Source: Candidatus Multivorans sp.
GTDB taxonomy: Bacteria; Acidobacteriota; Thermoanaerobaculia; Multivoradales; Multivoraceae
Reading direction: 5' to 3'
Length of the DNA stretch: 64,000 nt
Assembly (NCBI GenBank): GCA_965222875.1
Contig: CBDCVC010000002.1
Location: 802,835-866,834, forward strand
Of the stretch, positions 14,694 to 45,254 are shown piece by piece. The notes under the pieces were generated by a model. It did no database searches and was not told where the DNA came from. It worked only from the letters and a program-made list of their open reading frames with translations. How positions within the stretch are numbered: position 1 is the stretch's first letter; each line of letters opens with the position of its first letter. The translations under genes and the position numbers were made by a program.

Positions 14694-14743
14694 TCACCGC
14701 AATGCGACGCGGTACCCTTCTCAACGGACCAGAGGCTGAACCC

Positions 14744-15706
14744 ATGTTCGACACGCGACCCGCCCTGCTCGCGATGGAGTTTCCGCCGCTCCGTCGCCGG
14801 CGCATCGCCACCTTGCAGGTGAACCTCGGCTACCGCTGCAACCTCAGTTGCGTGCACTGTCACGTCAACGCCGGCCCTCACCGGACGGAGATGATGTCCA
14901 CTGCCATCGTGGACGACGTGATCGCGGTAATCGACCGGCTGGACATCGAGACACTCGATCTCACCGGCGGAGCGCCGGAGTTGCATCCCGAGTTCCGCCG
15001 CCTGGCGAAGGAGGCGCGCCGGCGGAGCATCGAGGTGATCGACCGCTGCAACCTGACGGTGCTGTTCGAACCAGGCCAGGAGACGCTGGCCGCTTTCCTG
15101 GCCCGGGAAGAAGTCACGGTGGTGGCCTCCCTGCCCTGCTACCTCGAAGAGAACGTCGAGCAGCAGCGCGGCAAGGGCGTGTACGGGGACAGCATCCGGG
15201 CTCTCAAGCTGCTGAACGACCTCGGTTACGGACAGGACGACGCGCGGCGGCTCCACCTGGTCTTCAATCCCACGGGCGCCGTGCTGCCGCCGCCGCAGGC
15301 AGAACTCGAAGCGGACTACAAGCGCGAACTCCAGGAACGTTTCGGCGTCGTCTTCGACCAACTCTTCGTGCTCACCAACATGCCCATCAACCGCTTCGGC
15401 GCCGTCCTGAGGGCGCAGGGCAAGCTGGACGACTACATGGCGCTGCTGCGGGACAACCACAGCGCCGAGAACCTACCGACCGTCATGTGCCGCGACACGA
15501 TCAGCGCCGACTGGCAGGGCAACCTGTACGACTGCGACTTCAACCAGATGCTGGGGCTTCCGGCCATGGTGGACGGCCGACCCGCGCGCCTCGCCGATCT
15601 CGTCCGGGGCGGACCGCTCGAGAAAGCCTGTATCGCCACGGCCGGGCACTGCTTCGGCTGCACCGCCGGCCAGGGCAGTAGCTGCACCGGCGCTCTGGAC
15701 GGCTGA
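14744..15706 (+). CDS. Radical SAM / Cys-rich domain protein (ArsS / TIGR04167-like)
   Basis: CX3CX2C motif LGYRCNLSCVHCHV and a C-terminal Cys-rich tail CIATAGHCFGCTAGQGSSCTG. The probable start is MFDTRPALLAMEF at 14744; the ORF-track start is 14702. Confidence 0.7.
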   Translation: MFDTRPALLAMEFPPLRRRRIATLQVNLGYRCNLSCVHCHVNAGPHRTEMMSTAIVDDVIAVIDRLDIETLDLTGGAPELHPEFRRLAKEARRRSIEVIDRCNLTVLFEPGQETLAAFLAREEVTVVASLPCYLEENVEQQRGKGVYGDSIRALKLLNDLGYGQDDARRLHLVFNPTGAVLPPPQAELEADYKRELQERFGVVFDQLFVLTNMPINRFGAVLRAQGKLDDYMALLRDNHSAENLPTVMCRDTISADWQGNLYDCDFNQMLGLPAMVDGRPARLADLVRGGPLEKACIATAGHCFGCTAGQGSSCTGALDG

Positions 15707-15711
15707 CTGCC

Positions 15712-15775
15712 GGCCATGTGCAGGAACTTTGAATACTTCTCGTTTACGCCTTAGTTGCGCTATGATGCTCTCTTC
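15712..15775 (+). promoter_or_regulatory. AT-rich spacer upstream of imuA with promoter-like hexamers
   Basis: The local GC drop reads GGAACTTTGAATACTTCTCGTTTACGCCTTAGTTGCGCTATGATGCTC, with a TATGAT -10-like hexamer. No canonical SOS box was recognised. Confidence 0.3.
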
Positions 15776-16694
15776 CCACTTCCCGTTTCTCTCGTTCCGC
15801 TTCGACGCCGTGACTTCCCTGCCCGCAGCTCTCACCGACGCGCAGTGGCCGCGGGCACTCGTGCGCCAGCTCCGGCGCGGGCGGGAGCTGGTGGGCAATG
15901 GTCCCGCAATCGGAATCCAGGAGACGGACGCCGATCTGTTCGCCACGCGGCTTCGCGGTGTCGACCTGTTGCTCGGCGGCGGGATCTGCCGCGGGCAGAC
16001 GGTCGAGTTGGTCGGCCACCGAAGCAGCGGTCGCTTCTCCCTGGTGCTGGAGCTCCTGGCCGGCGCCACCCAGAGCGGTGAATCGGCGGCGCTGGTCGAC
16101 CTGGGAGATCACTTCGATCCACAGGCGGCGGCGCGCGCCGGGGTCGTCCTCGAACGGCTGCTCTGGGCGCGGCCCCAGCGATTGAAGCAAGCGCTGGGCA
16201 GTGCCGAAGTGCTGATCGGCGGCGGCTTCCCCCTGGTCGCGATCGACCTCGGACTGCCTCCGGTGCCCGGCGGCCGCGGCAAGGAGTCCGCGTGGTTGCG
16301 GCTGCGGCGGGCGGCGCTGGATCACCAGGCGGCGCTGCTGATCGCCAGCCCGTACCGCGCCGGCGGTACGGCGCCGCAGAAGATTCTCGAACTGGGTTCC
16401 CGCGCGTCGCCGGTCCGGAATGCGGGCGAGACGCCCGCGTTCCCAGGGGGCGAGACGCCGCCGGTTCGCGCTCTCTGGGCGCAGGCCGCGCCGAGAAGCC
16501 CGCGGTTGCTCGACGGGCTCGCGACCCGCCTGGAACTCGCCAAGTCGCGCGGCGCACGGCCGGGCGCCGCGACCGATGTCGAACTGCGCGTTCGCACCAG
16601 CAGCCTGCGGCGCCCCCTGCCCGGCACGCCGTCCCGACCTGCGAAGAACAGCTCCGCCGGCTCGCCCGCCGAGGTGCTGAGACGTGCCGGCTAA
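15762..16694 (+). CDS. imuA: ImuA-like RecA-fold protein of the imuA-imuB-dnaE2 mutagenesis cassette (start uncertain)
   Basis: The pattern TRLRGVDLLLGGGICRGQTVELVGHRSSGRFSLVLELLAGA...AALVDLGDHFDPQAAARAGVVLERLLWARP...LIGGGFPLVAIDLG is typical of ImuA/SulA-like proteins. It lies immediately upstream of, and overlaps, imuB. The ORF-track start is 15729; GTG at 15806 is an alternative start. Confidence 0.6.
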   Translation: MMLSSHFPFLSFRFDAVTSLPAALTDAQWPRALVRQLRRGRELVGNGPAIGIQETDADLFATRLRGVDLLLGGGICRGQTVELVGHRSSGRFSLVLELLAGATQSGESAALVDLGDHFDPQAAARAGVVLERLLWARPQRLKQALGSAEVLIGGGFPLVAIDLGLPPVPGGRGKESAWLRLRRAALDHQAALLIASPYRAGGTAPQKILELGSRASPVRNAGETPAFPGGETPPVRALWAQAAPRSPRLLDGLATRLELAKSRGARPGAATDVELRVRTSSLRRPLPGTPSRPAKNSSAGSPAEVLRRAG

Positions 16695-16716
16695 ACGCAA
16701 CTCCCGGATCGCCTGC

Positions 16717-18237
16717 ATGCGGGCGGCGTTGTTTCCGCTCGCGGCCTACTTGCGGGGGGCGCCGGAGCTGGCCCGCGAGGCGGTCGTGGTCCACGAAGGC
16801 CCCTCGGCGCGGATCGTCGCCGCCTCCCGGCTGGCGCGACGCGCGGGTGTGCGGCCGGGGCTGACCGTGGCGCAGGCCCGGAACATCGAGTCCGGCCTCG
16901 CCTCTCGCGTCCGCGACCCGGAGCGCGAACACACCGCGCAGGAGGTGCTGCTCGAGATCGCCGGCGCCTTCTCACCCCGGGTCGAGGACGGCGGTGAGGG
17001 CATGGTCTACCTCGACATCGCGGCCGACGACGAGCACAACCTCGGCCAGACGATGATGCGGGACATGGATGCCGCCGGCCTGCCCGGGCGGGTCGGCATC
17101 GCCGGCTGCAAGCTCGCGGCGCGGGCCGCGGCCGCCCTGCCGCGGTCGCCGAACGTCGTGGCGCCACGCGGCGAAGCCCGGTTCCTGGCGCCGTTGCCGC
17201 TCAACTCTCTGCTCGGGAGCGGCGGCAGCGGTCCCGGCAGCGACGCGGCGGACGGCGACGACCAGGAAATCCTCCACACGCTGAAGCTCTGGGGCCTGCG
17301 CACCGTCGGCGATCTGGCCGGCCTGCCGGCGGGCGAGATCCACAGCCGTCTCGGCGAGCACGGCACAGCGCTCCATGCCGCCGCCCGAGGCGTCGATCCG
17401 GCGCCGCTCACTCCCCGTCCGCCGCCGCCCACCTTCCGCGAGTCGCAGACTCTGGAATGGCCAATCGACAACCTGGAACCGTTCCTGTTCGTCGCCCGCG
17501 CCGCGGTCGAACGCCTTGTCACCCGGCTCGAAGCCCGGGGCATGGGCTGCAAGCGGCTCGAACTGTCGCTCAAGCTCGAACCCGAGGGCCTTCACGAGCT
17601 GGCGATCGAACTGCCGGCGCCCACACGCGAGGCCCGGACGTTGCTGTCGCTCGTCCACCTCCACCTGGAGGGAGAGCCGCCCCGGGCACCGATTGTCGGC
17701 ATGCAGCTTTCGGCTCACCCCGATGCCCCGCGCCAGGCCCAACTCAGCCTGCTCGGTCCGGCCGCCCTGTCGCCAGATCGCCTGGCCGCCGTCACCGCCC
17801 GGCTGCTCGCCCTGCTCGGCCCAAACCGGGTCGGCTCGCCGCGCACCAGAAACGGCCATCTGCCGGAACGCTTCCGGCTCGCCGACTACGACCCGCCCCC
17901 GCCGCCCCGCATCCGGCTCGAACCCCGGCCGGGCCGCGGCATGCTGGCGGTGCGCACCTTGCGGCCCCCGGTCGAGGTCGAGGTGCTGACGGCCGAAGGT
18001 TCCACTCTCTGCCCCGCACCGGTGCAGATCAACCCCCTGCCGACCGACGAACGCCACGTCCGCATCGAGGGCGCGGTCCGGACCGCCGCCGGCCCCTGGG
18101 AGATCGAAGAGGGCTGGTGGCGGGAGGCCCCTGCGCTGCGGGACTACTGGGACGTGGAACTGCGGAACGGCGCGGTGTGCCGGATCTACCGTGACCGGAC
18201 GTCGGAGCGCTGGTTCGCGGATGGGGTGTACGACTGA
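16717..18237 (+). CDS. imuB: ImuB, an inactive Y-family polymerase-like protein
   Basis: The N-terminus MRAALFPLAAYLR fits the ImuB pattern. It has a Y-family fold-like composition without the catalytic acidic triad context. It is adjacent to imuA, with dnaE2 downstream. Confidence 0.7.
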   Translation: MRAALFPLAAYLRGAPELAREAVVVHEGPSARIVAASRLARRAGVRPGLTVAQARNIESGLASRVRDPEREHTAQEVLLEIAGAFSPRVEDGGEGMVYLDIAADDEHNLGQTMMRDMDAAGLPGRVGIAGCKLAARAAAALPRSPNVVAPRGEARFLAPLPLNSLLGSGGSGPGSDAADGDDQEILHTLKLWGLRTVGDLAGLPAGEIHSRLGEHGTALHAAARGVDPAPLTPRPPPPTFRESQTLEWPIDNLEPFLFVARAAVERLVTRLEARGMGCKRLELSLKLEPEGLHELAIELPAPTREARTLLSLVHLHLEGEPPRAPIVGMQLSAHPDAPRQAQLSLLGPAALSPDRLAAVTARLLALLGPNRVGSPRTRNGHLPERFRLADYDPPPPPRIRLEPRPGRGMLAVRTLRPPVEVEVLTAEGSTLCPAPVQINPLPTDERHVRIEGAVRTAAGPWEIEEGWWREAPALRDYWDVELRNGAVCRIYRDRTSERWFADGVYD

Positions 18238-18355
18238 GGGGGTCCACATGGACTCGAGACCTACAGATTCCAGATGGCTGCCATCGGCCCACTTATAGAG
18301 TTCTGCCCGGCTTTTATCGATTCTCGCTATAAACGGCCGACAGGAGAAGAACAGC

Positions 18356-18790
18356 ATGAAGAACCAATGGATCTTCCCGACCCTCACCGGGATCAACTTC
18401 GCACTCCTGGCATTGCTCCTGTTGCTGCCCTACCTCACGAAGGCGGACGCCGCCGAAGACACCGTCCTGCGTGGCACGGGGATCGAGATCGTGGACCGTG
18501 ACGGACGCTTGCGGGCGCAGCTCGTCCTGGAGCCCGAAAACCCCGACTACGAGTGGCCGGACGGGCGAATCGGGTATCCCGAAACCGTCATCCTCCGGCT
18601 GATCACCGCTGACGGAAAGCCGCGGGTCAAGATCACGACTTCCGAGGAGGACTCCGGCCTCATGCTCCTCGGGGCGTCCGACACGACCCACACGATTCTC
18701 AAGGCGTTTCGGGACGAGACGTCTCTGTTGTTGCGGAACGACGCCACGGCCCAACGACTGCTGACGCCCGGCGTGTCGGCAGCCCGGTAG
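18356..18790 (+). CDS. Hypothetical exported or membrane-anchored protein
   Basis: RBS AGGAGAAG, and an N-terminal hydrophobic segment FPTLTGINFALLALLLLLPYL. Confidence 0.55.
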   Translation: MKNQWIFPTLTGINFALLALLLLLPYLTKADAAEDTVLRGTGIEIVDRDGRLRAQLVLEPENPDYEWPDGRIGYPETVILRLITADGKPRVKITTSEEDSGLMLLGASDTTHTILKAFRDETSLLLRNDATAQRLLTPGVSAAR

Positions 18791-18806
18791 TCCGAACGCG
18801 CCGGCC

Positions 18807-19196
18807 TCAATCGTCCGGCAGGGCGGGTCCCGGCACCCGCCCGCCGATGACCTGCTCCGTCACCACACGGCCACCGATCAGGTGTTCCTGGATCACTCGT
18901 TCCAGCACCTCGGGCGTGCAACCCCAGTACCAGACGCCCTCCGGGTAGACCACCGCGATCGGGCCGGCGTCGCAGATCCGGAGGCAGTTCGCCTTCGTCC
19001 GCATGACCGTGCCGGACTCCGTCAGGCCGATCTCGACCAAGCGGCGCTTGAGGTAGGACCACGACTCGAGTGACGTCTCCAGCTCGCAGCACTTGGGCGT
19101 CGTCTGGTCGCAGCACAGAAAGATGTGCCGCTGCACGTTCGAGATGCCGATCGACTCGGCCTTGCGCCGGGCGCGGTCGAGCGCTTCGCGGTCCAT
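18807..19196 (-). CDS. Thioredoxin-like [2Fe-2S] ferredoxin
   Basis: HIFLCCD...KCC...[22 protein letters not shown] matches the Cys ligand pattern of thioredoxin-like 2Fe-2S ferredoxins. Confidence 0.75.
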
Positions 19197-19249
19197 GGCG
19201 CCGATGATTCCATGACCGGCGCGGAGCTCCAGCGATAGTCTGCGATGCC

Positions 19250-19624
19250 ATGAAGCTGTTCGAAGCCGCCTACCCGTTCCAGGACGACGTGCTCGCCCTG
19301 CCGGTAGACGATCTTGACGCCACCGCGAAGTGGTACGCGGACGCCTTCGGGCTCCAGGAGGTCGAACGGCGCGAGGAACCGGCGCCGACGGTCATTCTCG
19401 AACGCGACGGCGTCCGGATCGGCTTCGCGATCAACGGCGGCGACGCAAGCATGGACGGCGCCGCGATCCTGGTCACCGACATCAAGCGAGCGCGGACCGA
19501 GCTCAAGAGCAACGGCATCAAGGTCAAGAACTGGCGCATCGACAAGCGGGACGGCAAGAAGTTCCGGGTCTTCTTCGTCGTCGCGCCGGACGGACTCTGC
19601 TACTACTTCCATCAGGAGGTCTGA
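19250..19624 (+). CDS. VOC family protein (glyoxalase-like)
   Basis: 124 aa with VOC-like beta-alpha-beta3 composition ([15 protein letters not shown]...GVRIGFAI...[18 protein letters not shown]). Confidence 0.65.
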
Positions 19625-19683
19625 CGGGGCGACCGTCGGTCACGGTAAGATCGGGCGTCCACGGCTTCAGGGGCACGTACTTC

Positions 19684-20019
19684 ATGCTCACGCTTGACCC
19701 CGACGAACAGACTTGGCTCGACGACTACCGGAAGGCGCTCCGAGAACAGCACCCGGACGCCGTCCGGCGCATGGTCGTCTACGGCTCAAAGGCCCGTGGC
19801 GACGCCCGCGAAGACAGTGATCTGGACATCCTGCTCCTGGTTGCCGACGAGGCCGCGGACCTCCAGCGGCGCCTCAGGCGCATCGGCTACCACCTCGCCG
19901 CGGCCACGCCGATCGCGCCCTCGATCATGGCGTACACGAAAGGAGCGTGGGAGACACAGAAGAACCGCGGCTTCCCATTCCAGCTCGCCGTTGAGCGCGA
20001 CGCCGTCTCGGTTCTGTGA
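19684..20019 (+). CDS. Minimal nucleotidyltransferase (second MNT, orphan)
   Basis: MVVYGSKARGDAREDSDLDILLLV is the GS-x9-DxD MNT signature. The stop TGA abuts the ATG of a 16-codon ORF (MLYLLTKGLTEDDLAC*) at 20020-20070. Confidence 0.7.
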   Translation: MLTLDPDEQTWLDDYRKALREQHPDAVRRMVVYGSKARGDAREDSDLDILLLVADEAADLQRRLRRIGYHLAAATPIAPSIMAYTKGAWETQKNRGFPFQLAVERDAVSVL

Positions 20020-20097
20020 ATGCTCTATCTGCTGACGAAGGGACTGACCGAAGACGATCTTGCGTGCTGAGGAACTCGAGGGACCCGGTTCTGAGGG

Positions 20098-21846
20098 ATG
20101 GCAATCGGCTTGCGAATGACAGTTCACTCCGAAAGACGGGAGGTCGTCGCAGCCGTCATGGTCGGCGTGGCGCTCCTTCTTCATCAGGCCGCCAACGCCC
20201 AGGACTTCGCCGAACTCCTGGAGATCCGGCGCGTCAAGGAGACGCTGGACCTGAGCGAGGTGCCGGAACCGGACCTGACCGGGGTTCCCGCGGTCGACGG
20301 GCAGCGTCTTCAGGAGTACCGGTCGCTCACCGCGAACGCCCTGGAACACGCCGCGGGGCCTCTCGAGGCGCAGTTGGCGGCGAACACCTACGGCGACCTG
20401 TGCGCGCGCTACCTGCACTACGAGCTCCACGACGCGGCGGCCGGCTGCCTGGATCAGATCAGGGAGCTGGCGCCGGCGGACTTCCAGTGGGCCTACTTCC
20501 AGTTGCTGCTGGACATTGCGACCGGCAACTTTGAAGGCGCCCTCTCGAGCGCCGAACAGGCGCTCGCCATGCGGCCGGACGACCCGCCGACCTTGATTCG
20601 CCTGGCCGAACTCCACGTCGCGGCCGGCGACATCGACGCCGCCGAAGCCGCGTACGAAGCGGCGCTTGCGGCCTATCCGGAGAGCGCCACGGCCCGCGTC
20701 GGCCTCGGCTACATCGCAATGGAACGCGGCGATCCGGCGCGCGCGCTCGAGATCTTCCAGGAAGTCGCCGCGTCGCAGCCCGAGGGCAGCGAGGCGAATC
20801 ATCACGTCGGCCTCGCCTACCGCGCATTGGGTGATGGCGACCGGGCCGTCGAGGCGTGGCGCCTGAACCAGGACATTCAGATCCCGATGTACGACCCGCT
20901 GATCGAACGCCTCAGGCCGCTCGAGGAAGATGTGATCCTGCCGCTCGACCGCGCCGTCGCCGCCGCCGCGGAGGGCGACCACCAACGGGCGGTCGGGCTG
21001 TACGAAGAGATCCTCCAAGCGAACGAGGCGGACGACGAAGCGCACTTCCGCCTGGCGGGCTCGCTGCTGGTGCTCGGCGAGGCCGTGCGCGGCGAAGGGC
21101 ATCTACGCCGGGCGATCGCGCTGAACACCGATCACGCCGGAGCGCACTTTGCCCTCGCCATGTTCCTCGCTCAAGCCGGACGCCGCAGCGACGCCGCCCA
21201 ACACCTGGAACGGGCGGCCGATCTCGCGCCCCAGAACCTGCCCTGGCGTCTTCAGCGGGCGCAGATGCGGGCCGCCTCGGGCAACACCGCCGGCGCCATC
21301 GACGAACTCAGGCAGATCGTGGCCCTCGACCCCGGGATGATCGAAGCACGGCGACCGCTCGCCGCCCTGCTCGTCGGCGCGGGCCGGGCCGAAGAAGCCG
21401 CCGCCCAGTTGCAGGCCCTGGTCGCGCTGACGCCGGACGATCTGCAGGCGCGCTTCAACCTCGGGCTGATGCTGTTCCAGACCGGCCGCTACACCGAGGC
21501 GCGCGCGGCTCTGGACGAAGCTCTGGGGCGCTTCCCCAGCGACATCGCCACCCGCCACCTGCTGGCGCGGCTGCTTGCCGTGAGCCCCGACGAGGCGGTG
21601 CGCGACGGCGCACGGGCGGTCGAGCTGGCGCAGTCGGTGGTCGACGAACAACCCGCACTCGACCACCTCGAGACGCTGGCGATGGCCCTGGCCGAGGCCG
21701 GGCGGTTCGACGACGCCGTCGCTTGGCAGCAACGGACGCTCGAACGGGAACGGGCCGAGGCCGGTGGTAACTCGTCCCAACGGCTCGATCGGCTGGCGCT
21801 GTACCAGGCGCGGCAGCCGCTGCGGGCCCCGCGGCGTCAGAACTAG
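20098..21846 (+). CDS. TPR-repeat protein with N-terminal signal peptide
   Basis: Signal-like VAAVMVGVALLLHQAANAQD, followed by many Ala-rich TPR-like repeats. Confidence 0.7.
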   Translation: MAIGLRMTVHSERREVVAAVMVGVALLLHQAANAQDFAELLEIRRVKETLDLSEVPEPDLTGVPAVDGQRLQEYRSLTANALEHAAGPLEAQLAANTYGDLCARYLHYELHDAAAGCLDQIRELAPADFQWAYFQLLLDIATGNFEGALSSAEQALAMRPDDPPTLIRLAELHVAAGDIDAAEAAYEAALAAYPESATARVGLGYIAMERGDPARALEIFQEVAASQPEGSEANHHVGLAYRALGDGDRAVEAWRLNQDIQIPMYDPLIERLRPLEEDVILPLDRAVAAAAEGDHQRAVGLYEEILQANEADDEAHFRLAGSLLVLGEAVRGEGHLRRAIALNTDHAGAHFALAMFLAQAGRRSDAAQHLERAADLAPQNLPWRLQRAQMRAASGNTAGAIDELRQIVALDPGMIEARRPLAALLVGAGRAEEAAAQLQALVALTPDDLQARFNLGLMLFQTGRYTEARAALDEALGRFPSDIATRHLLARLLAVSPDEAVRDGARAVELAQSVVDEQPALDHLETLAMALAEAGRFDDAVAWQQRTLERERAEAGGNSSQRLDRLALYQARQPLRAPRRQN

Positions 21847-21898
21847 CAACACCGGTTCATACCGGCGCTGCGCCGGATGCGGGCAAGATGCCCGTGTT

Positions 21899-21955
21899 CC
21901 ATCCGTGCGCCCGATGGCGGGCGCACGGAGTGGTTCGCGGGTGGCGCGGAATCGC
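21899..21955 (+). repeat. Conserved palindromic hairpin element, copy A
   Basis: CCGTGCGCCCG-ATGG-CGGGCGCACGG (11-bp perfect stem at 21904-21929) followed by GAGTGGTTCGCGGGTGGCGCGGAATCG. About 57 nt recur at 43531-43590 with 5 mismatches. Confidence 0.6.
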
Positions 21956-22060
21956 GCCGCCCGGGTTCCCAGGGCGGATAAGCGCGGCGATCTCCCGGCT
22001 GTCGACGCCTGGGTTCCCAGAGGTCTTGCTATCCATTACCGCCTGATTTACGCTTACCGG

Positions 22061-25000
22061 ATGGCTCCCAAGGTCAAAGTACCGGCCCGCAACATGGGGC
22101 TGTCCGGCTCGATGCGCAAGGGCAGCAACCGCGGCGGCGGTAACGGCAACGGCCTGCTCGACGCCCGGGGCGAGCCGAACCCCGGCTATGCCGCGCCGGG
22201 GGCGGTCAAGGAGCAACTGCGCCGGCGCGACCTCCAGCCCCCGCCGAAGCGCCGTCGACGGCCGCCGTCCTACGCCGAACTCCACGCTGCCTCGTCGTTC
22301 TCCTTCCTGCGCGGCTCGTCGCAGCCCGAGGATCTGGTGGCGCGGGCGGCGGCGCTCGGGCTGCCGGCGGTCGCCCTGCTCGACCGGAACGGCGTCTCCG
22401 GCGCGCCGCGCTTCTACAAGGCGGCGCGGGAGGCGGGGATCCGGGCGCTGGTCGGCGCCGAGGCGGTCATCGACCGGCCGCAGGCGTCGGCGGTTTCGCG
22501 GCAGCGCGAGGAGCGGCCGATGCTGGACGATCAGGAAACCCGCGTCCAGCTTCTGGTGAGGAGCCGACAGGGCTACCGCAACCTCTGCCGCCTGCTGACC
22601 GCCGGGGCGCTCAACCACCCGAAGGGCGAGGCCCGGATCGACTGGACGCTGCTCGAGGAGCACGCGGCCGGGCTCCACTGCCTGGCCGGCGCCGCAGCCG
22701 ACCCGATCGGACGGGCGCTGACGCGGGAAGGGCAGGAAGCGGCCGGTCGCCAGCTCGAACGGCTGCACGCCGTCTTCCCGGGCCGCCTGCATGTGGAGCT
22801 CGCGCGGCACGGCATCCGCGCCGAGGAACATCGCAACCAGGCCCTGGTCCGGCTGGCGCAGAGGCTGGCGGTACCCGTTGTGGCCACCGGCGGCGTGCGC
22901 TACGCCACCGCCGCCGACAAGCCCCTCTACGATCTGATGACCGCGATCCGGCACCACGTAACGGTCGACGACGCCGGCGCGCGCCTCGCCCGCTGCCGGC
23001 AGCGGCGTCTGAAGAGCCCGGAAGAGATGCACCGGCTGTTCGCCGATCTGCCGCAGGCCGTCCACGCCGCGCACGAACTGGCCGCGGAACTCGACTTCAC
23101 CCTCGCCGACCTCGGCTACCGCTTCCCGGACTACCCGCTTCCCGCCGGCGAGACGGCGATCTCCCATCTCCGCGAACTGACCTGGCAGGGGGCGCGGGAG
23201 CGATTCCGGCCGCTCACCGCCCGCGCCGGGGCGCAACTCGAGAAGGAGCTCGCGCTGATCGAGAAGCTCGACCTCGCCGGCTACTTCCTGATCGTCTGGG
23301 ACATCGTCCGCTTCTGCAAGGAGCAGCGGATCTTCGCCCAGGGCCGCGGCTCGGCCGCCAACTCCGCGGTCTGCTATGCGCTCTCGATCACCGCGGTGGA
23401 CCCGGTGAAGATGGACCTCCTGTTCGAGCGCTTCCTGTCCGAAGAACGGGGCGAATGGCCGGACATCGACATCGATCTGCCGTCCGGCGACCAGCGCGAG
23501 AAGGTCATCCAGTACGTCTACCGGCGCTACGGCCGGCACGGCGCGGCGATGACCGCGAACGTGATCACCTACCGCGACCGCATGGCCGCGCGCGAGGCGG
23601 CCAAGGCGCTGGGGTGCTCCAAGTCCCAGGTCGACCGGCTGGCCAAAGGCCTCGGCCACTGGCACTCCGCCCTGAGATACAGCGGCCTCTCCCGCGGCGA
23701 CAGCAAGGAGATGGACGAGGAACTGACGGAGCTCGGGTTCGATCCCCGCGACCGGCGCATCCAGATCTTCGTCCGGTTGTGGCGGCAGCTTCAGAACCAT
23801 CCCCGCCACCTGAGCCAGCACTCGGGCGGCATGGTGCTCTGCGCCGGCCGACTGGACGAGATCGTGCCGCTCGAACCGGCGGCGATGGAGAACCGGGTCA
23901 TCGTCCAGTGGGACAAGGACGACTGCGCCGATCTGGGGCTGATCAAGGTCGACCTGCTCGGCCTCGGCATGCTGAATGCGCTGGAGGAGGCGGTGCCCCT
24001 GATCCACCGGCACGAAGGCAGGGAGATCGACCTGGCTCACCTGCCGCCCGACGACCCGGCGGTCTACGAGATGATCTGCCGCGCCGACACGGTCGGGGTC
24101 TTCCAGATCGAGAGCCGGGCGCAGATGGCGTCCCTGCCGCGCCACCGGCCATACAAGTTCTACGATCTCGTGATCCAGATCGCGATCATCCGCCCCGGCC
24201 CGATCGTCGGCGGGATGGCCCATCCCTTCTTCGAGCGCCGGGTGGGCCGCGAGGAGGTCACCTACCCTCACCCGCTGCTCGAGCCGATCCTGCGCCGCAC
24301 CCTCGGCGTACCGATCTTCCAGGAACAGATCCTCAAGGTCGCCATGGTCGCGGCCGGCTTCAGCGGCGGCGAGGCGGAGGATCTGCGGCGCGCGATGGGC
24401 TTCAAACGCTCCGTCGAGCGAATGCAGGAGATCGAACGCCGCTTACGTTCCGGCATGAACGAACGCGGCATCCAGGGCGTTGCCCAGGAACAGATCGTCA
24501 AGGCGATCACGTCGTTCGCGCTCTATGGTTTCCCGGAGTCGCACTCCGCCAGCTTCGCCCTGATCGCCTACGCCAGCGCCTACCTGAAGCGGCACCATCC
24601 GACCGCCTTCTTCCTGTCACTCCTGAACGCCTGGCCGATGGGCTTCTACCACCCGGCGACCCTGGTCCGCGAAGCGCAGCGCGCGGGCAGCGTGGTGCTG
24701 CCGATCGACGTGAACGAATCGGGGGTCAGGTGCCGTTGGGAAGACAGGCCGGCGGAGAGCGACGGGGTGGCGCGGCGCGGGCGCGCGGGCGATCCGCCGC
24801 GGGGAGCGATCCGCCTCGGGCTGCGCTACGTCAAGGGACTGCGGCACGAGGCGGCCGAACAGATCGAAGCCGAGCAGGCGGGAAAGCCGTTCGGGAGCAT
24901 TGAGGATCTGGCCGAGCGCTGCCGCTTGCGCCGGAAGGAACTCGCGGCGCTGGCGTCCATTGGCGCGTTGCCAGAGCGCGGCCGGCGGGCCGCGCTGTGG

Positions 25001-25492
25001 CAGGCGGCCCAGGTCGAGAAGCCGAAGGGGCCGTTGTTCGCGAGTCTTCCAACCGCCACCCCCTCGCCGCTCGACGAGATGACGCCAATGGAAGAGACCG
25101 CCGCCGACTTCCGCGTCGCCTCGATCACCACCGGACCTCACCCGATGGAGTACTACCGCCGGGCGCTCCACCGCCGCCGCGTCGTGCCCGCCGCCAAGCT
25201 CCCGGACCGGCCCGCCGGCCGCCGCGTGCGCACCGCCGGCTCGGTCATCGTCCGCCAGCGCCCCGGCACCGCCCGCGGGCTGCTGTTCCTGACCCTCGAG
25301 GACGAAACCGGCATGAGCCAGGCGGTCGTCATGCCGGACCAGTTCAAGAAGCACCGCCGCACGATCGTCTCGTCCTCCGGCCTGATCGTCGAAGGCGTGC
25401 TGCAGAAGAAGGACGGCTCGCTATCCGTCAAGGCGGACAAGTTCTGGCCGATCGACCGGCTGGAGAGAGTACCGAGCCACGACTTCCGGTGA
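22061..25492 (+). CDS. dnaE2: Error-prone DNA polymerase III alpha, DnaE2 (ImuC); start uncertain (22061, 22094 or 22112)
   Basis: PHP-domain start YAELHAASSFSFLRGSSQPEDLVARAAALGLPAVALLDRNG and the DnaE2-type polymerase core. The N-terminal extension is Gly/Arg-rich. Confidence 0.85.
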   Translation: MAPKVKVPARNMGLSGSMRKGSNRGGGNGNGLLDARGEPNPGYAAPGAVKEQLRRRDLQPPPKRRRRPPSYAELHAASSFSFLRGSSQPEDLVARAAALGLPAVALLDRNGVSGAPRFYKAAREAGIRALVGAEAVIDRPQASAVSRQREERPMLDDQETRVQLLVRSRQGYRNLCRLLTAGALNHPKGEARIDWTLLEEHAAGLHCLAGAAADPIGRALTREGQEAAGRQLERLHAVFPGRLHVELARHGIRAEEHRNQALVRLAQRLAVPVVATGGVRYATAADKPLYDLMTAIRHHVTVDDAGARLARCRQRRLKSPEEMHRLFADLPQAVHAAHELAAELDFTLADLGYRFPDYPLPAGETAISHLRELTWQGARERFRPLTARAGAQLEKELALIEKLDLAGYFLIVWDIVRFCKEQRIFAQGRGSAANSAVCYALSITAVDPVKMDLLFERFLSEERGEWPDIDIDLPSGDQREKVIQYVYRRYGRHGAAMTANVITYRDRMAAREAAKALGCSKSQVDRLAKGLGHWHSALRYSGLSRGDSKEMDEELTELGFDPRDRRIQIFVRLWRQLQNHPRHLSQHSGGMVLCAGRLDEIVPLEPAAMENRVIVQWDKDDCADLGLIKVDLLGLGMLNALEEAVPLIHRHEGREIDLAHLPPDDPAVYEMICRADTVGVFQIESRAQMASLPRHRPYKFYDLVIQIAIIRPGPIVGGMAHPFFERRVGREEVTYPHPLLEPILRRTLGVPIFQEQILKVAMVAAGFSGGEAEDLRRAMGFKRSVERMQEIERRLRSGMNERGIQGVAQEQIVKAITSFALYGFPESHSASFALIAYASAYLKRHHPTAFFLSLLNAWPMGFYHPATLVREAQRAGSVVLPIDVNESGVRCRWEDRPAESDGVARRGRAGDPPRGAIRLGLRYVKGLRHEAAEQIEAEQAGKPFGSIEDLAERCRLRRKELAALASIGALPERGRRAALWQAAQVEKPKGPLFASLPTATPSPLDEMTPMEETAADFRVASITTGPHPMEYYRRALHRRRVVPAAKLPDRPAGRRVRTAGSVIVRQRPGTARGLLFLTLEDETGMSQAVVMPDQFKKHRRTIVSSSGLIVEGVLQKKDGSLSVKADKFWPIDRLERVPSHDFR

Positions 25493-25505: not shown

Positions 25506-27938
25506 CTACCGGCCCGACCGCACCGGTACGCCCTGCCGGTACTGCTCCAGTCTCCGGTTCAGAAGCTCAAGCAGCCGTTCCCGGTCGGCCGGGGCCGCCT
25601 GCTGCCGTCCCGTGCCGCCGCGGATGGCCTCCAAGGCGGTCTCGATGGTCCGGATCGCGGCATCGAAGTCGCCGGTCTCGGCGTAGGCGGCGGCCAGAGT
25701 CTCGAGCAGAGCCGGCTCGGTGCCGCCGGCGACCGCATTCAGTTCGAGTGCGATGATCAGGGCGAGTTGGCCGTCGCGGCGGCCGGCATCCCGATCGGTC
25801 GCCAGGGTCCAGGCGAGGTCGTTGCCACGCGCGAGCAGACGCTCGTCCTCGACGTAGGCGCGCCGCAGGTGCTCCGTGCCTTCCAGAGCGCCCTCCGGTC
25901 CGCTACGCAGAAGAGTCAGCCCGAGTTCGTGGCGGCCGGCGGCGTGATTGGGGTCATGCTCCAGGAGCGATCGGTAACGCTTCACCGCTTCGTCCAGACG
26001 GCCCGTACCGGCAGCCACCTGAGCGGCGCCGTAGAGGGCGTCGACGTCGCGAGGCGCCACGTCGAGAATCGCCCGGTAGTGCGCCGCGGCGGCCTCCGGG
26101 TAGCCGCTGCGGACCGCCGCGACGGCCAGGATCCCGTGCGCCTCGACGTGCCGCGGATCGCGGTCGACGACCGCGGCGAACTGCTCCATCGCCGCAGCCA
26201 GCCGGTCCAGCTTGCCGAGCAACTGGCCGTAGAGGTATCTGAGATCCACATCGTCGGGGCTCTGCTCCACGGCGCGACCGAGTTCATCTGCCGCGGCCTC
26301 GGTTTGCCCCTCGCTGTCCAGGAGTTCGGCCAGCCGCACCCGGGCGGCGACATCGCCGGGATCCGCCGCCAGCGCCGACTCCACTTCGGCACGTACCTGG
26401 TCCACGTCGCCGGCGTCGACCAGGGCGTTCTGGTAGGCCATCCGCGCACCTGGATCGTCCGGTTCGAGGTCCAGGGCGGCGCGGGCGTGACGCGCGGCGG
26501 CCTGGTTGTCGCCGCGCCGGCTCTCGATCACCGCCAACCGCTGGAGTGACTTGAACAGCCGGTCCCGCGCACCGCGCTGCTCGAACGAGGCTCTCCCACC
26601 GCCGTCCGCCCGGCTGCCGTCCAGCCGCGCCTGCTCCACCTCCACCGACCGTTGCAGGAAGTCCACGGACTCGGTGGGGAAACGGTCCTCGAACCAGCGC
26701 GCGTAGCTGGCCAGCGACACCTCGTCCGGCGGCTCGGTGAACCAACGGCCGGCGACCGGCGCCGAGGCCGCCCGCAGCGCGGAGCGCGGAGCGTCGAGTA
26801 GTTCGAGGTCGGCCAGAAGATCGCCGGCGGTCACACCGCCACGGTAGAGAACGGCGACCCGGCCCTCGCCGTCGATCAGCATGGAGAACGGCAGCGACAG
26901 CGGGAAGCGGCGGTCGAACAGCGAGCGCTTGACGATCTCGACCTTGTCGAGGGTCTCCTCGGTCGCCATCCCGTTGCGGAACGGAAAGCCGATCCCGTCC
27001 ATGAACTCTCGGGCCGACTCCTCAGTCGTGGTCGGCACGTCGCCCATGCCATCGGTCGACAGCGCCGCGATCTCGAGCCCGGCTGCGCGTAGCGCATCCT
27101 CTGCGGCCGTCAGGTCGCGCAGCTCTGACCGGCAGGGAGCGCACCAGCTCGCCCAGATGTTGAGCAGTACGGGGCGACCCCGGCCGATCGCGACCGACGC
27201 CGGTTCCGAGGCGCCGAAGGGACGGAGCGTTAGCTGCGGCGAAGGCGGCCGCGGCGCCAGCACGACGCGGGCGCCCGTGATCGGCGCGGGCGGCTGCTGC
27301 TCACCGGGTTCGAGCGCTGTCTGCCGCCTTCGCGCGGGCGCCGGCGCCGCCCGGCCGCTGCCCTGGACGATCCGGTAGCGGCCGCCGGCCGCAATGCCGC
27401 TGAACGTCTCCCGGCCGGCGCCGGGCCAGTGGACCGTCACCACGCTCGCCGGTTGGCCGTCGCCGAGGCCGAAGTGCAGCCAGCGGCTGGACTGGGAGAG
27501 GAAGCCCTCGCCGGCGCGCACCGAGCGCCGCAAGACGCCGTCCGTCGTCCCAAGCTCGACCCGGGCGCCCACCGCGTCGCGGTTCGTGCCGGCGCCGTCG
27601 CCTTCGAGGTGCAGCGCGACAAAGCGGTCGTCCGCGGCCAACTCGTTGCGCATCAGCCGCAGCCGGGGCGCGGTCCGGTTGCTGATCGCCACATCCAGGT
27701 CGCCGTCGCCCTCCAGGTCGAGGAAGGCGACGCCGCGGCCGTCGTCCGGAAAGTCCAGACCGCTCACCGCCGAGGCGTTGGCAAAGGCGCCGCCCGCCCG
27801 GCCGGGGTTCAGGAAAACGCAGTTCCGTTCGTTGCCGCTGAAGGACAGCCCCTCGTCGAGCCGCTCGTGGAGCGCGCGCAGGGATTCGAGATAGGGCTCG
27901 AGCGAGCGGTCATCGGGAGTTCTGGGCGCACGCGGCAC
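25506..27938 (-). CDS. C-terminal part of a CRTAC1-like protein: ASPIC/UnbV, thioredoxin-like (TlpA) and TPR. It is separated from its upstream part by one in-frame TGA.
   Basis: ASPIC/UnbV motifs NRDAVGARVEL...SGEGFLSQSSRWLHFGLGDG...VTVHWPGAG, thioredoxin-like WASWCAPCRSE, and C-terminal TPR repeats. It is in the same frame as 27960..29784. Confidence 0.7.
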   Translation of the reverse strand: MPRAPRTPDDRSLEPYLESLRALHERLDEGLSFSGNERNCVFLNPGRAGGAFANASAVSGLDFPDDGRGVAFLDLEGDGDLDVAISNRTAPRLRLMRNELAADDRFVALHLEGDGAGTNRDAVGARVELGTTDGVLRRSVRAGEGFLSQSSRWLHFGLGDGQPASVVTVHWPGAGRETFSGIAAGGRYRIVQGSGRAAPAPARRRQTALEPGEQQPPAPITGARVVLAPRPPSPQLTLRPFGASEPASVAIGRGRPVLLNIWASWCAPCRSELRDLTAAEDALRAAGLEIAALSTDGMGDVPTTTEESAREFMDGIGFPFRNGMATEETLDKVEIVKRSLFDRRFPLSLPFSMLIDGEGRVAVLYRGGVTAGDLLADLELLDAPRSALRAASAPVAGRWFTEPPDEVSLASYARWFEDRFPTESVDFLQRSVEVEQARLDGSRADGGGRASFEQRGARDRLFKSLQRLAVIESRRGDNQAAARHARAALDLEPDDPGARMAYQNALVDAGDVDQVRAEVESALAADPGDVAARVRLAELLDSEGQTEAAADELGRAVEQSPDDVDLRYLYGQLLGKLDRLAAAMEQFAAVVDRDPRHVEAHGILAVAAVRSGYPEAAAAHYRAILDVAPRDVDALYGAAQVAAGTGRLDEAVKRYRSLLEHDPNHAAGRHELGLTLLRSGPEGALEGTEHLRRAYVEDERLLARGNDLAWTLATDRDAGRRDGQLALIIALELNAVAGGTEPALLETLAAAYAETGDFDAAIRTIETALEAIRGGTGRQQAAPADRERLLELLNRRLEQYRQGVPVRSGR

Positions 27939-43530: not shown

Positions 43531-43590
43531 CATCCGTGCGCCCGCTGACGGGCGCACGGACTGGTTCACGGGTCGCGCGGATCGGCCCAC
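43531..43590 (+). repeat. Conserved palindromic hairpin element, copy B
   Basis: CCGTGCGCCCG-CTGA-CGGGCGCACGG (stem 43535-43560), then GACTGGTTCACGGGTCGCGCGGATCGG. It lies 11 bp outside the left IR of the IS1182-family element. Confidence 0.6.
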
Positions 43591-43611: not shown

Positions 43612-45254
43612 GCGCTAGCAGTCTGTCGGACTTCTGCGCGTTGATCTGGGGGTCTGGTGGTTTGTCGGTTAGTTTCGGTGTTCAAGGGAGGTCGACAGGT
43701 ATGCCGAAGTTCATCGAGGCTCACCGCAACCAGCCGTTCCTGCTTCCTCCGGACCTTCGGGACTGGATGCCGGAAGACGATCTGGCTCATTTCGTGGTGG
43801 AGGCGGTGGAACGTGTGCCGATGGAGTCGTTCGTGGTGAACGAGCGGGGTACGGGTTCGGCTCAGTACCCGCCTCGTCTGATGCTGGCTCTTCTGGTGTA
43901 CTGCTACGCGAACGGCGTATTCGGTTCACGCCGAGTCGAGCGTGCGACGTATCGGGATGTCGGGGTGCGTTACCTGGCGGCGAATCTGCATCCGGACCAC
44001 GACACGATCTGCACGTTTCGTCGCAACAACGTGGATGCGATTGCTTCGGCGTTCGAGCAGGTGCTGTTGATGGCGCGGGAGTTGAAGCTGTTGCGGGTGG
44101 GGATGGTGAGCGTGGACGGCACGAAGGTGGACGCGAACGCGAGCAAGCGGAACAGTCTGCGTTACGACCGTGCGATGGAGTTGCGGGCGCAGTTGCAGGA
44201 GGAGATCGCGGGTCTGTTGGAGGAGGCGGAGCGTGCGGACGGCAAGGGCGTTGCCGACCAGGAGGGCTTGCCGGACGAGTTGAAGCGTCGCCGGCGGTTG
44301 AAGGAGAAGCTGGACGAGGCATGCGAGACGACGCTGGAGCGGCGTGCGCTGAGGCGTGCGGAGCGTGAGCGTGTCGAGTACGAGCGCAGGTTGGCGGAGC
44401 GAGAGGAGCGGCCGCCCAATCGTCGTAGCCGCAAGCCGAAGCCTCCGCGCGAGGAGCCGGAGGCGAAGAAGCAGATCAACCTGACGGACAAGGACAGCGG
44501 CCTGATGAAGAAGAGTCGGCGCAGCGAGTACCGCCAGGCGTACAACGCTCAGGCGGTGGTGGACGCCGAGGGGAGTCAGTTGGTGCTGGGCGCCCGCGTC
44601 AGCGGCTGCGCGAACGACAAGCACGAACTGGTCGCGGACGTGGACTCGATGCCGGAGTCGGTGGGAACGGTCGAGCGAGCGCTGGCGGACAACAGTTTCG
44701 CGACTGGCTGCGAGGTGAAGACGCTCGAGGACCGGGGCATCGACGTCCTGGTGTCGACCCGGAAGGAGGACCGTCGCCACCAGCACGACTTCCGGCCCGA
44801 GACTGAGGCGAAGCCCCGGAAAGAGCCGAAATCCGAATGGGTGCGGAAGATGCAGGAGAAGCTGGCCCAGGACGACAACCGCAAGAAGTACAGTCTGCGC
44901 AAGCAGACGGTGGAACCGGTATTCGGGATCGTCAAACACGTCCTGGGATTCCGCCAGTTTCACCTGCGCGAGCTGACGAAGGTGGACGGCGAGTGGAAGC
45001 TCGTCATGCTGGCCTACAACTGCAAGCGCCTGCACAACCTGCTCGCCGCCTGAGCGCCCGTGGGCGCCTCGTCTTCCCTGCGAAAACCGCCTCAACGGCC
45101 GTCGGGCGCGAGCACACGCTCTGCCATCGGCCCCACGAACACGAAATAGCCGATCCGAACGCGACACGATCGCTCACGGCACCACGCCCGAACCGCCTCT
45201 CAGGCTTCGTCGCCCGCCTCCCCGCCGTCCCAAGTCCGACAGACTGCTAGCGCG
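43612..45254. mobile_element. IS1182-family insertion sequence, about 1.64 kb
   Basis: Perfect 23-bp terminal inverted repeats CGCGCTAGCAGTCTGTCGGACTT at 43612-43634, with the reverse complement at 45232-45254. It carries a single transposase gene. No clear TSD was found. Confidence 0.8.
43701..45053 (+). CDS. IS1182-family (IS5-like) transposase
   Basis: RBS GGGAGG. MPKFIEAHRNQPFLLPPDLRDWMPEDDLAHFV is the characteristic IS1182 N-terminus. A central charged coiled region; the DDE-bearing region with C-terminal ...KLVMLAYNCKRLHNLLAA. Confidence 0.9.
   Translation: MPKFIEAHRNQPFLLPPDLRDWMPEDDLAHFVVEAVERVPMESFVVNERGTGSAQYPPRLMLALLVYCYANGVFGSRRVERATYRDVGVRYLAANLHPDHDTICTFRRNNVDAIASAFEQVLLMARELKLLRVGMVSVDGTKVDANASKRNSLRYDRAMELRAQLQEEIAGLLEEAERADGKGVADQEGLPDELKRRRRLKEKLDEACETTLERRALRRAERERVEYERRLAEREERPPNRRSRKPKPPREEPEAKKQINLTDKDSGLMKKSRRSEYRQAYNAQAVVDAEGSQLVLGARVSGCANDKHELVADVDSMPESVGTVERALADNSFATGCEVKTLEDRGIDVLVSTRKEDRRHQHDFRPETEAKPRKEPKSEWVRKMQEKLAQDDNRKKYSLRKQTVEPVFGIVKHVLGFRQFHLRELTKVDGEWKLVMLAYNCKRLHNLLAA

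Follow-up and report, generated by a model that had tools for sequence, protein, structure and literature searches.

A putative direct-repeat operator shared by the separate imuA-imuB and dnaE2 units of Candidatus Multivorans

The DNA analyzed here is a 64,000-nt stretch (the window; assembly GCA_965222875.1, contig CBDCVC010000002.1, positions 802,835 to 866,834) from Candidatus Multivorans (Thermoanaerobaculia, Acidobacteriota), a sponge- and coral-associated lineage. In the window, imuA-imuB is followed, after 3.8 kb of other genes, by dnaE2 on the same strand. We consider it likely that the ImuA-ImuB-DnaE2 translesion mutasome is encoded by two transcription units of one damage-inducible regulon, which share a direct-repeat operator with LexA as its most likely repressor, and that the locus is not a broken operon. 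An earlier note, made from the letters of the window, had described imuA-imuB as split from dnaE2 by about 4 kb. This layout is borne out, with the genes lying at or near the positions it had assigned, and the cargo in the gap is as it had listed: a small exported protein, an antisense ferredoxin (fdx), a VOC protein, an MNT nucleotidyltransferase, and a 582-aa TPR protein.

Alignment of upstream regions unveiled a block that is conserved in every relative, both before imuA (...CGTTTACGCCTTAGTTGCGCTATGAT...) and before dnaE2 (...CTTGCCTTCCGTTACCGCCTGATTTACGCTTACCGGATGG), and that contains in each case two TTACGC-like heptamers placed 11 to 12 bp apart. At two or fewer mismatches, the pattern TTACGCYN4TTACGCY matches the window exactly twice (15744-15761 and 22037-22054; about 0.5 matches expected by chance), both times on the coding strand and just upstream of imuA and of dnaE2. 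For comparison, 39 loci of species-level representatives were collected with ImuB as the query and the window proteins were mapped onto them; 28 of these loci span the interval from imuB to dnaE2. In their 726 kb, searched on both strands, all 68 motif matches lie at imuA or dnaE2 promoters, including four first classed as "other," which are dnaE2 promoters in loci with a partial DnaE2 match. The motif occurs at the imuA promoter in 36 of 36 related loci and at the dnaE2 promoter in every locus that reaches it, L025 and L032 included (L numbers denote individual loci), and neither the window nor any of the 39 related loci has a site at the cargo genes fdx, VOC, and TPR. An initial 20-nt pattern built from the two window sites had given an additional match with 3 mismatches inside arsS, which is at chance level and was gone with the refined 18-nt repeat pattern. 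We infer that the TTACGCY direct repeats function as an operator, that LexA binds to it, and that expression of the two units is damage inducible.

The placement of the repeats within the promoters is consistent with this role. The imuA promoters of five outgroup genomes and the dnaE2 promoter of one of them (L040) consist of a −35 box TTGAYT, the repeats TTACGCY-N4-TTACGCY, and a −10 box TAnnnT. Here, the repeats take up the spacer between near-consensus promoter boxes (TTGACT-17 nt-TAnnnT), and no other such repeat occurs in any of the 21-kb outgroup loci. In the window, the repeats occupy the same promoter region and overlap the −10 box. Upstream of dnaE2, just 6 nt lie between the −10-like hexamer and the ATG, with no Shine-Dalgarno sequence; the dnaE2 mRNA is thus likely leaderless, and the same short distance recurs in many metagenome dnaE2 promoters. 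A conserved element of 18 to 20 nt that is confined to the core promoter and invariably points in the direction of transcription could itself be a promoter-recognition sequence, for example of an alternative sigma factor, instead of a repressor site. We find this improbable, because the outgroup and metagenome elements sit between good sigma-70-type −35 (TTGACT) and −10 (TAnnnT) boxes, at spacer positions that are normally unconstrained, and because the marked genes, lexA among them, make up the target set of a damage regulon.

The further targets were revealed by a single scan of a metagenome collection with the exact pattern TTGAYTTACGCYNNNNTTACGCY, which returned at least 120 stretches. The motif is followed by imuA(-imuB) at no fewer than 49 sites, by dnaE2 at 21 or more, by lexA at 7 or more, and by a gene for an HTH_3/XRE-family regulator (about 150 to 350 aa) at 18 or more; at least 12 sites are too short to classify. 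Among the matches listed, none precedes recA, and the remaining sites stand before other genes (including those for a radical-SAM protein and a methyltransferase-like protein) or in tandem arrays. The LexA of L078 was confirmed by Pfam (LexA_DNA_bind, 68.7 bits; Peptidase_S24, 96.3 bits), and ImuA, ImuB, or DnaE2 of the contigs with the motif before lexA (at least seven) are 38 to 81% identical to those of the window over the aligned stretches. In seven metagenome lexA loci (L047, L055, L061, L078, L079, L088, and L097), a conserved GC-rich leader of about 110 nt (...GGCCGATGGGCCGTTCCCTGGGCCCGGGAGCGGCCGCGGTGGTCC...) separates the putative operator from the start codon, and could be a structured 5′ untranslated region or a small upstream open reading frame. 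The stand-alone XRE/HTH_3 regulator has the conserved motif ...LNGLGQALRWLRDRQGKKQYQVAEAAGITKGMLSAYETGRQRPSLETLEKIL... and the same direct repeat in its own promoter; it was found in L058, L072, L080, L091, L103, L104, L106, L117, and L121 and further in L126, L137, L139, L149, L154, L156, L158, L159, and L163. This regulator is a candidate damage-response coregulator in Acidobacteriota. The unit TTGAYTTACGCY also forms tandem arrays of three to four copies (L046 at about 1465, L074 at about 165, and L135 at about 1296), with no recognizable damage gene downstream.

LexA is the probable repressor because lexA carries the site, which fits autoregulation; because the targets (lexA, the mutagenesis cassette, and a radical-SAM/SplB-like gene) match core SOS regulons; because LexA of Alphaproteobacteria reads direct repeats with 11-bp spacing; and because recA has been reported as not LexA regulated in Acidobacteria, which fits its absence among the matches listed. 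The same counts also bear on a different binder. The two units could be controlled through TTACGCY repeats that are bound by an XRE-family (HTH_3) regulator, DdiA- or DdrO-like, with lexA as one target among others: at least 18 of the at least 120 motif sites precede the XRE gene versus at least 7 for lexA, which would likewise fit autoregulation, and the XRE protein DdiA of Myxococcus xanthus controls dnaE2 independently of LexA. We regard this as unlikely, if by no means negligible. XRE/Cro-type dimers usually bind palindromes, whereas for direct repeats of 11 bp there is the LexA precedent. The target set (lexA, imuAB, dnaE2, and the radical-SAM gene) resembles core LexA regulons, and no IrrE-like protease gene adjoins the XRE gene in the metagenome loci. 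As predicted from the shared sites, the split would leave the three genes coupled whether LexA or the XRE protein binds.

Several observations weigh against two LexA-controlled units as described. The XRE gene is marked more often than lexA among the matches listed, and its product could be the binder. Neither lexA nor recA was detected in the window or in 45 loci by tblastn with approximate sequences of Escherichia coli and Bacillus subtilis LexA and of E. coli RecA as queries; only the RecA-like region of ImuA matched. Nor did the window or the Multivoraceae loci, which cover a small part of each genome, show the XRE gene; this also counts against the XRE protein as the binder. The metagenome pattern includes the −35 box, and its matches come without taxonomic placement. 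The repeats of the Multivoraceae dnaE2 promoter have a spacing of 12 bp, with a shift of about 6 nt relative to the hexamers. Finally, a scan for E. coli-type consensus promoters found none between 15.5 and 25.8 kb, where the −35 and −10 hexamers of the window are poor by E. coli standards, and the promoter assignment in the window rests on alignment with the better outgroup promoters. A terminator scan of the same region remained at background level.

The mechanism that we propose would work as follows. Unit 1, P(imuA)-imuA-imuB, and unit 2, P(dnaE2)-dnaE2, would each be held by a repressor, most likely LexA, which occupies the two TTACGCY direct repeats (11-bp spacing) inside the core promoter and thereby blocks RNA polymerase. 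Upon DNA damage, LexA would cleave itself under stimulation by RecA and thereby release the two promoters at the same time, so that the three proteins could be made in step despite the 3.8 kb between their genes; the mRNA from which dnaE2 is translated would probably be leaderless. The genes for ferredoxin, VOC, and TPR would be bystanders that have occupied the gap since before the family diversified, and two insertion-prone junctions (imuB|fdx and VOC|TPR) would have gained and lost the exported protein, ATPases, insertion sequences, and the MNT-HEPN pair.

The age of the split can be read from gene order in the relatives. The closest ImuB relatives (74 to 94% identical) come from metagenome-assembled genomes labeled Candidatus Multivorans, Multivoraceae, or Thermoanaerobaculia, with some records under the older labels Holophagales and Acidobacteria bacterium. 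The order imuA-imuB, antisense fdx, VOC, TPR, and dnaE2 is the same in 26 to 27 of the 28 spanning relatives, down to 74% ImuB identity. Between imuB and dnaE2, the TPR gene is present in 27 and the antisense fdx in 26 of the 28 spanning loci, the VOC gene in 21/28, the MNT gene in 9/28, and the small exported protein in a single one (3 of the 39 loci overall: L002, L003, and L005). An antisense TPR/ASPIC gene downstream of dnaE2 is conserved as well, and the upstream neighbor of imuA is variable. The usual cargo is replaced in L025 and L032 by defense-like genes or insertion sequences, with the dnaE2 promoter kept in both. All five outgroup genomes (ImuB 53 to 57% identical) have imuA-imuB as a two-gene unit followed by unrelated genes, with dnaE2 not adjacent; L040 is the only one with dnaE2 within 10 kb, at a distance of 9 kb behind different cargo. 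On metagenome contigs, dnaE2 never follows imuB directly (about a dozen longer contigs, with 1.4 to 6.5 kb checked), and imuB does not stand directly before the dnaE2 promoter in seven or more, the exception being L148, with 2.1 kb of cargo between the two, an arrangement similar to that of the window. The conserved cargo and the split in the outgroups therefore place the separation before the family, and separate imuAB and dnaE2 seem to be the rule in this part of the phylum.

This gene order also bears on a recent disruption, which the earlier note had favored as a secondary insertion: about 4 kb of foreign cargo would have disrupted a formerly contiguous imuA-imuB-dnaE2 operon in this genome, leaving dnaE2 without its native control and behind a palindromic element. 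GC content, which is about 0.65 to 0.75 across the region, drops to 0.61 to 0.64 at the small exported protein (dips at 18.0 to 18.75 kb), and this gene, the MNT gene, and the hairpin element do vary among close relatives. In addition, dnaE2 lies on the same strand a few kilobases downstream of imuB in the window, L040, and L148, which would fit an ancestral cassette pried apart long ago. We nevertheless judge a recent break to be very unlikely, as the presence of fdx and the TPR gene in the gap of 26 to 27 of the 28 relatives largely refutes it for the core cargo, the outgroups and metagenome relatives are already split, and the dnaE2 promoter with its operator is kept in every relative. What holds of the secondary insertion concerns the recent, variable parts of the gap, which the comparison limits to the small exported protein, the MNT(-HEPN) module, and a hairpin element of about 70 nt. 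The inserted genes are otherwise conserved in relatives, which answers one half of the refuting condition set in the earlier note (a conserved and coregulated unit); no operator precedes them.

The palindromic element that had been placed before dnaE2 is indeed repeated: CCGTGCGCCCG-N4-CGGGCGCACGG at 21903-21928 has a second copy at 43534-43559 (0 expected by chance). However, it is the conserved promoter with its putative operator that directly precedes dnaE2, and the hairpin lies further upstream and is dispensable. The hairpin cluster to which it belongs (21847-21975) has a predicted RNA fold of −84.5 kcal/mol (z = −5.15). Its low-copy element of about 70 nt, which resembles repetitive extragenic palindromes or miniature inverted-repeat transposable elements (REP/MITE), is at the orthologous site in L003 (about 20115), has one weaker copy in L038 (about 4323, minus strand; 12/58 mismatches), and is absent from L001 and L004. 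Since both of the latter loci keep the promoter, the hairpin was rejected as a dnaE2 regulatory element. The second copy of the element in the window (43532-43590) stands some 140 nt upstream of a transposase gene of the IS5/IS1182 type (43701-45053; DUF772 and DDE_Tnp_1), and the element may be derived from or mobilized by this insertion sequence.

The layout of the gap speaks against transcription across it. The fdx gene is antisense, and most relatives have an antisense gene for a GYD-domain protein in the TPR-to-dnaE2 spacer of about 720 nt; the window lacks the GYD gene and has the strong hairpin cluster in its place. As judged from this arrangement, no operon is expected to span imuB to dnaE2. 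Conservation of gene order across the family could still suggest that ferredoxin, VOC, and TPR proteins are functional partners of the mutasome, forming a coregulated unit under selection in which, e.g., the VOC protein sequesters a bleomycin-like compound; its weak match to a bleomycin-resistance-like N-terminal domain (19.9 bits, below the cutoff) would go along with that. This seems to us scarcely credible. No operator precedes any cargo gene, and fdx is antisense; VOC is missing in 7 of the 28 relatives, and the swapped cargo of L025 and L032 left the dnaE2 promoter in place; the outgroups have entirely different genes after imuB. The flanking gene downstream is equally conserved, so that the conservation looks like ordinary family-level synteny. 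With regard to the individual proteins, the small exported protein (18356-18790) has no Pfam or NCBIfam match. The ferredoxin scores below the cutoffs (NCBIfam 2Fe-2S ferredoxin, 54.8 bits versus 150; Pfam, 17 bits versus 24.8), and the six cysteines read from its sequence (two CC pairs and C-x3-C) could supply four cluster ligands.

The variable genes of the gap are concentrated at two junctions. The convergent imuB|fdx junction measures just 21 to 124 nt in 14 loci. In others, it contains an antisense AAA_16 ATPase, an AAA_15/AAA_21 ATPase with a PIN protein, an S41 peptidase, IS3- and IS4-type transposases, or a small exported protein of the window type. Insertions were seen in L002, L003, L005, L007, L010, L013, L016, L017, L019, L022 to L024, L027 to L031, and L038, and also in L025 (11.9 to 17.3 kb); the antisense AAA_16 ATPase (about 396 aa) recurs in about 16 loci. 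This junction looks like an insertion hot spot and resembles a small islet of defense genes and mobile elements. The VOC|TPR junction holds an overlapping MNT-HEPN pair, whose HEPN gene is intact (about 130 to 140 aa) in eight relatives (L001, L004, L022, L023, L024, L027, L028, and L029; PF05168, 57.3 bits in L004), disrupted in L003, and gone from the window, L002, and L030. The window stub MLYLLTKGLTEDDLAC matches the C terminus of the HEPN proteins of relatives (...IRQYLLAKGLPEDEI... and ...YLLAKGLPEDEI...), in agreement with the earlier description of an orphan MNT with a 16-codon HEPN stub. This match points to deletion of the toxin-type HEPN gene down to a C-terminal remnant, with MNT remaining alone. 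Because HEPN is reduced to 16 codons and only MNT is left, the pair is predicted to be no longer a functional toxin-antitoxin system.

Profile searches uphold the three mutasome gene calls, imuA as an ImuA-like gene. ImuB matches the IMS domain (46.8 bits in Pfam), and its relatives are annotated as ImuB by JGI. At the positions of the DinB catalytic pair D103/E104, aligned with an approximate E. coli DinB reference sequence, it has G and M, which fits the catalytically dead ImuB described in PMC6511836. About 150 residues extend beyond the IMS_C region, with QLSLL as a candidate clamp-binding motif read from the sequence. Exact-sequence look-ups of the window ImuB, with either start, returned no record. 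DnaE2 exceeds the cutoff of the NCBIfam model NF004225 "error-prone DNA polymerase" (1,256 bits versus 939) and has the complete Pfam set (PHP, pol III alpha, finger, HhH, and OB domains). Its N-terminal extension (68 aa in the window; about 68 to 115 aa) is open and in frame in 29 of 29 relatives, with length differences in multiples of three; in L034, the earliest ATG is out of frame and the next one restores the frame. These patterns support ATG 22061 as the right start. The extension (22061-22264) contains two family-conserved blocks, VPARNMGLSGS-RKGS and LLDARGEPNPGYAAPGAVKEQLRRR, the latter partly kept in metagenome relatives. It has no Pfam match and could be an ImuB- or clamp-interaction segment.

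For imuA, the fold and the position stand, and the start and the curated family do not. The protein matches Pfam RecA (49.6 bits) and solved RecA cores (about 1e-11), with a degenerate P-loop (Walker A; GHRSSGRFS), and its gene adjoins imuB immediately upstream in all of the more than 40 loci examined. The curated models for ImuA and ImuA′ are far below their cutoffs (NF033429, 31.8 bits versus 150; NF058630, 29.8 versus 65). We therefore call it ImuA-like by fold and position, and it would belong to a divergent subfamily. Most of 33 relatives have an in-frame stop codon a short way upstream, after which a GTG (15810 in the window) is the sole start codon. The ATG at 15762, proposed earlier, is inside the conserved −10 box and 5′ untranslated region and in frame only by chance. 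GTG 15810 is thus most likely the imuA start.

The features of the locus are compiled in Table 1. Upstream of imuA, the window encodes an ArsS-type radical SAM protein of arsenosugar biosynthesis (14702-15706; TIGR04167, 440 bits versus a cutoff of 300), which is next to imuA only in a few relatives (L005, L022, L030, L031, and L035). Downstream of dnaE2, an 810-aa protein on the minus strand (25506-27938) combines FG-GAP/ASPIC-UnbV and thioredoxin-like (AhpC/TlpA-type) domains with TPR repeats, and its gene is kept at this place in most relatives. About 100 nt upstream of the imuA promoter, a 35-nt palindrome with perfect arms (GGAACTTTGAATAAGGG-N3-CCCTATTCAAAGTTC) was found in L001 (8996-9030) and at the corresponding position of about 15 further loci. 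Each of these has a single copy, just upstream of which synteny ends; some loci have a single arm on each side of an insertion, and the window has only the left arm (15722-15736), joined directly to the imuA promoter. This palindrome could serve for recombination or attachment or as the target of a regulator. A role as LexA box or dispersed repeat was rejected: the palindrome occurs once per locus, is missing from many loci, and is only half present in the window, and is therefore not the conserved control element. No Rfam family was found in 14 to 28 kb of the window, no tRNA in the window, and no plasmid match for it.

Table 1. Features of the imuA-imuB to dnaE2 region, in window coordinates
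Feature	Coordinates	Strand	Remarks
imuA promoter core	15744..15766	+	putative operator TTACGCC-TTAG-TTGCGCT (15744-15761) overlapping −10-like TATGAT (15761-15766)
imuA, RecA-fold accessory protein, 294 aa	15810..16694	+	start revised to GTG 15810
imuB, catalytically dead Y-family polymerase homologue	16717..18237	+	alternative GTG start 16684 overlaps imuA end
Small exported protein, no family match	18356..18790	+	at imuB|fdx junction; recent and variable
Thioredoxin-like [2Fe-2S] ferredoxin (fdx)	18807..19196	-	convergent with imuB; weak subthreshold matches
VOC (glyoxalase/bleomycin-resistance fold) protein	19250..19624	+	PF00903 Glyoxalase, 32.7 bits
Orphan MNT nucleotidyltransferase, antitoxin-type half of MNT-HEPN pair	19684..20019	+	NTP_transf_2, 38.8 bits
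16-codon HEPN gene remnant MLYLLTKGLTEDDLAC	20020..20070	+	matches C terminus of HEPN of relatives
TPR protein, 582 aa, signal-peptide-like N terminus	20098..21846	+	multiple TPR families
GC-rich hairpin cluster 3′ of TPR stop codon	21847..21975	+	includes REP/MITE-like insertion of about 70 nt, 21901-21970
dnaE2 promoter	22026..22060	+	−35-like TTGCTA 22026-22031; putative operator ATTACCGCC-TGAT-TTACGCT 22035-22054; −10-like TACGCT 22049-22054
dnaE2 (ImuC), error-prone C-family polymerase, 1143 aa	22061..25492	+	NF004225 match; 68-aa N-terminal extension

The canonical LexA-regulated imuA-imuB-dnaE2 cassette reportedly occurs in Caulobacter and many phyla (others cite Galhardo 2005 and Erill 2006 for this). 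The window has the same three genes, a presumed single repressor, and a small core SOS regulon that would include lexA, but two promoters and operators instead of one, and recA is apparently outside the regulon. Split arrangements are known from Mycobacterium tuberculosis and M. smegmatis, where, according to the summary of Warner et al. 2010 given in PMC6511836, imuA′-imuB and dnaE2 are separate and all three genes are needed for damage-induced mutagenesis. As in the window, a RecA-like protein and a catalytically dead ImuB are encoded together there, with DnaE2 apart. In the window, no more than 3.8 kb separate dnaE2 from the upstream imuB on the same strand, and the inferred operator is a direct repeat with 11-bp spacing, in contrast to the palindromic GAAC-N4-GTTC LexA box of Actinobacteria. 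Myxococcus xanthus also has an imuA-imuB operon and, a few genes away, a separate dnaE2 (MXAN_3990/MXAN_3982), under mixed control by LexA and the XRE protein DdiA (PMC12288472). An XRE-family regulator is part of its damage network, and in the metagenome relatives of the window, the XRE gene carries the motif. DdiA, however, activates dnaE2 directly or indirectly with no shared operator described, whereas both units in the window have the same repressor-type site.

The closest parallel to the motif itself is the LexA box of Alphaproteobacteria, a direct repeat (GTTC-N7-GTTC) with 11-bp spacing, and the LexA box of Acidobacterium capsulatum is reported to be Alpha-type (Mazon et al. 2006). Both boxes and the window motif are direct repeats rather than palindromes, have an 11-bp period, and are located in promoters of SOS genes. 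The repeat unit differs (TTACGCY versus GTTC), and LexA binding to the former is a prediction. A limited search of the searchable literature did not find the TTACGCY motif, and the operator may be the new item of this locus. It is quite possible, if not quite probable, that TTACGCY-N4-TTACGCY is an undescribed damage operator in a large clade of Acidobacteriota, one that would comprise Thermoanaerobaculia and numerous soil lineages, as either a native LexA box or an XRE repressor site, with a minimal regulon of lexA, the XRE gene, imuAB, and dnaE2 that leaves out recA. As for MNT-HEPN pairs, the relatives have the overlapping MNT (NTP_transf_2) and HEPN (PF05168) genes, whereas the window has MNT alone.

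Since the split imuAB/dnaE2 layout was already known, the layout alone adds little; the window shows the arrangement in a phylum where such a split had not previously been looked at from this angle. What is useful is the regulatory finding that a single short direct repeat is shared by both halves of the cassette in all relatives examined and that, in related metagenomes, lexA and the XRE regulator gene carry it too. If the proposed function is true, this would provide a damage-response operator for a large, mostly uncultured group of Acidobacteriota, whose SOS-type regulon could then be predicted from sequence alone, and a second case of a damage repressor that reads direct repeats rather than palindromes. 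The repeat could then be a native LexA box that differs from the Alpha-type one described in A. capsulatum, and the shared operator would explain how a permanently split mutasome is coordinated. Finally, the locus suggests that a conserved gap between coregulated units can be a landing pad for defense genes, insertion sequences, and toxin-antitoxin modules that leave the flanking units undisturbed.

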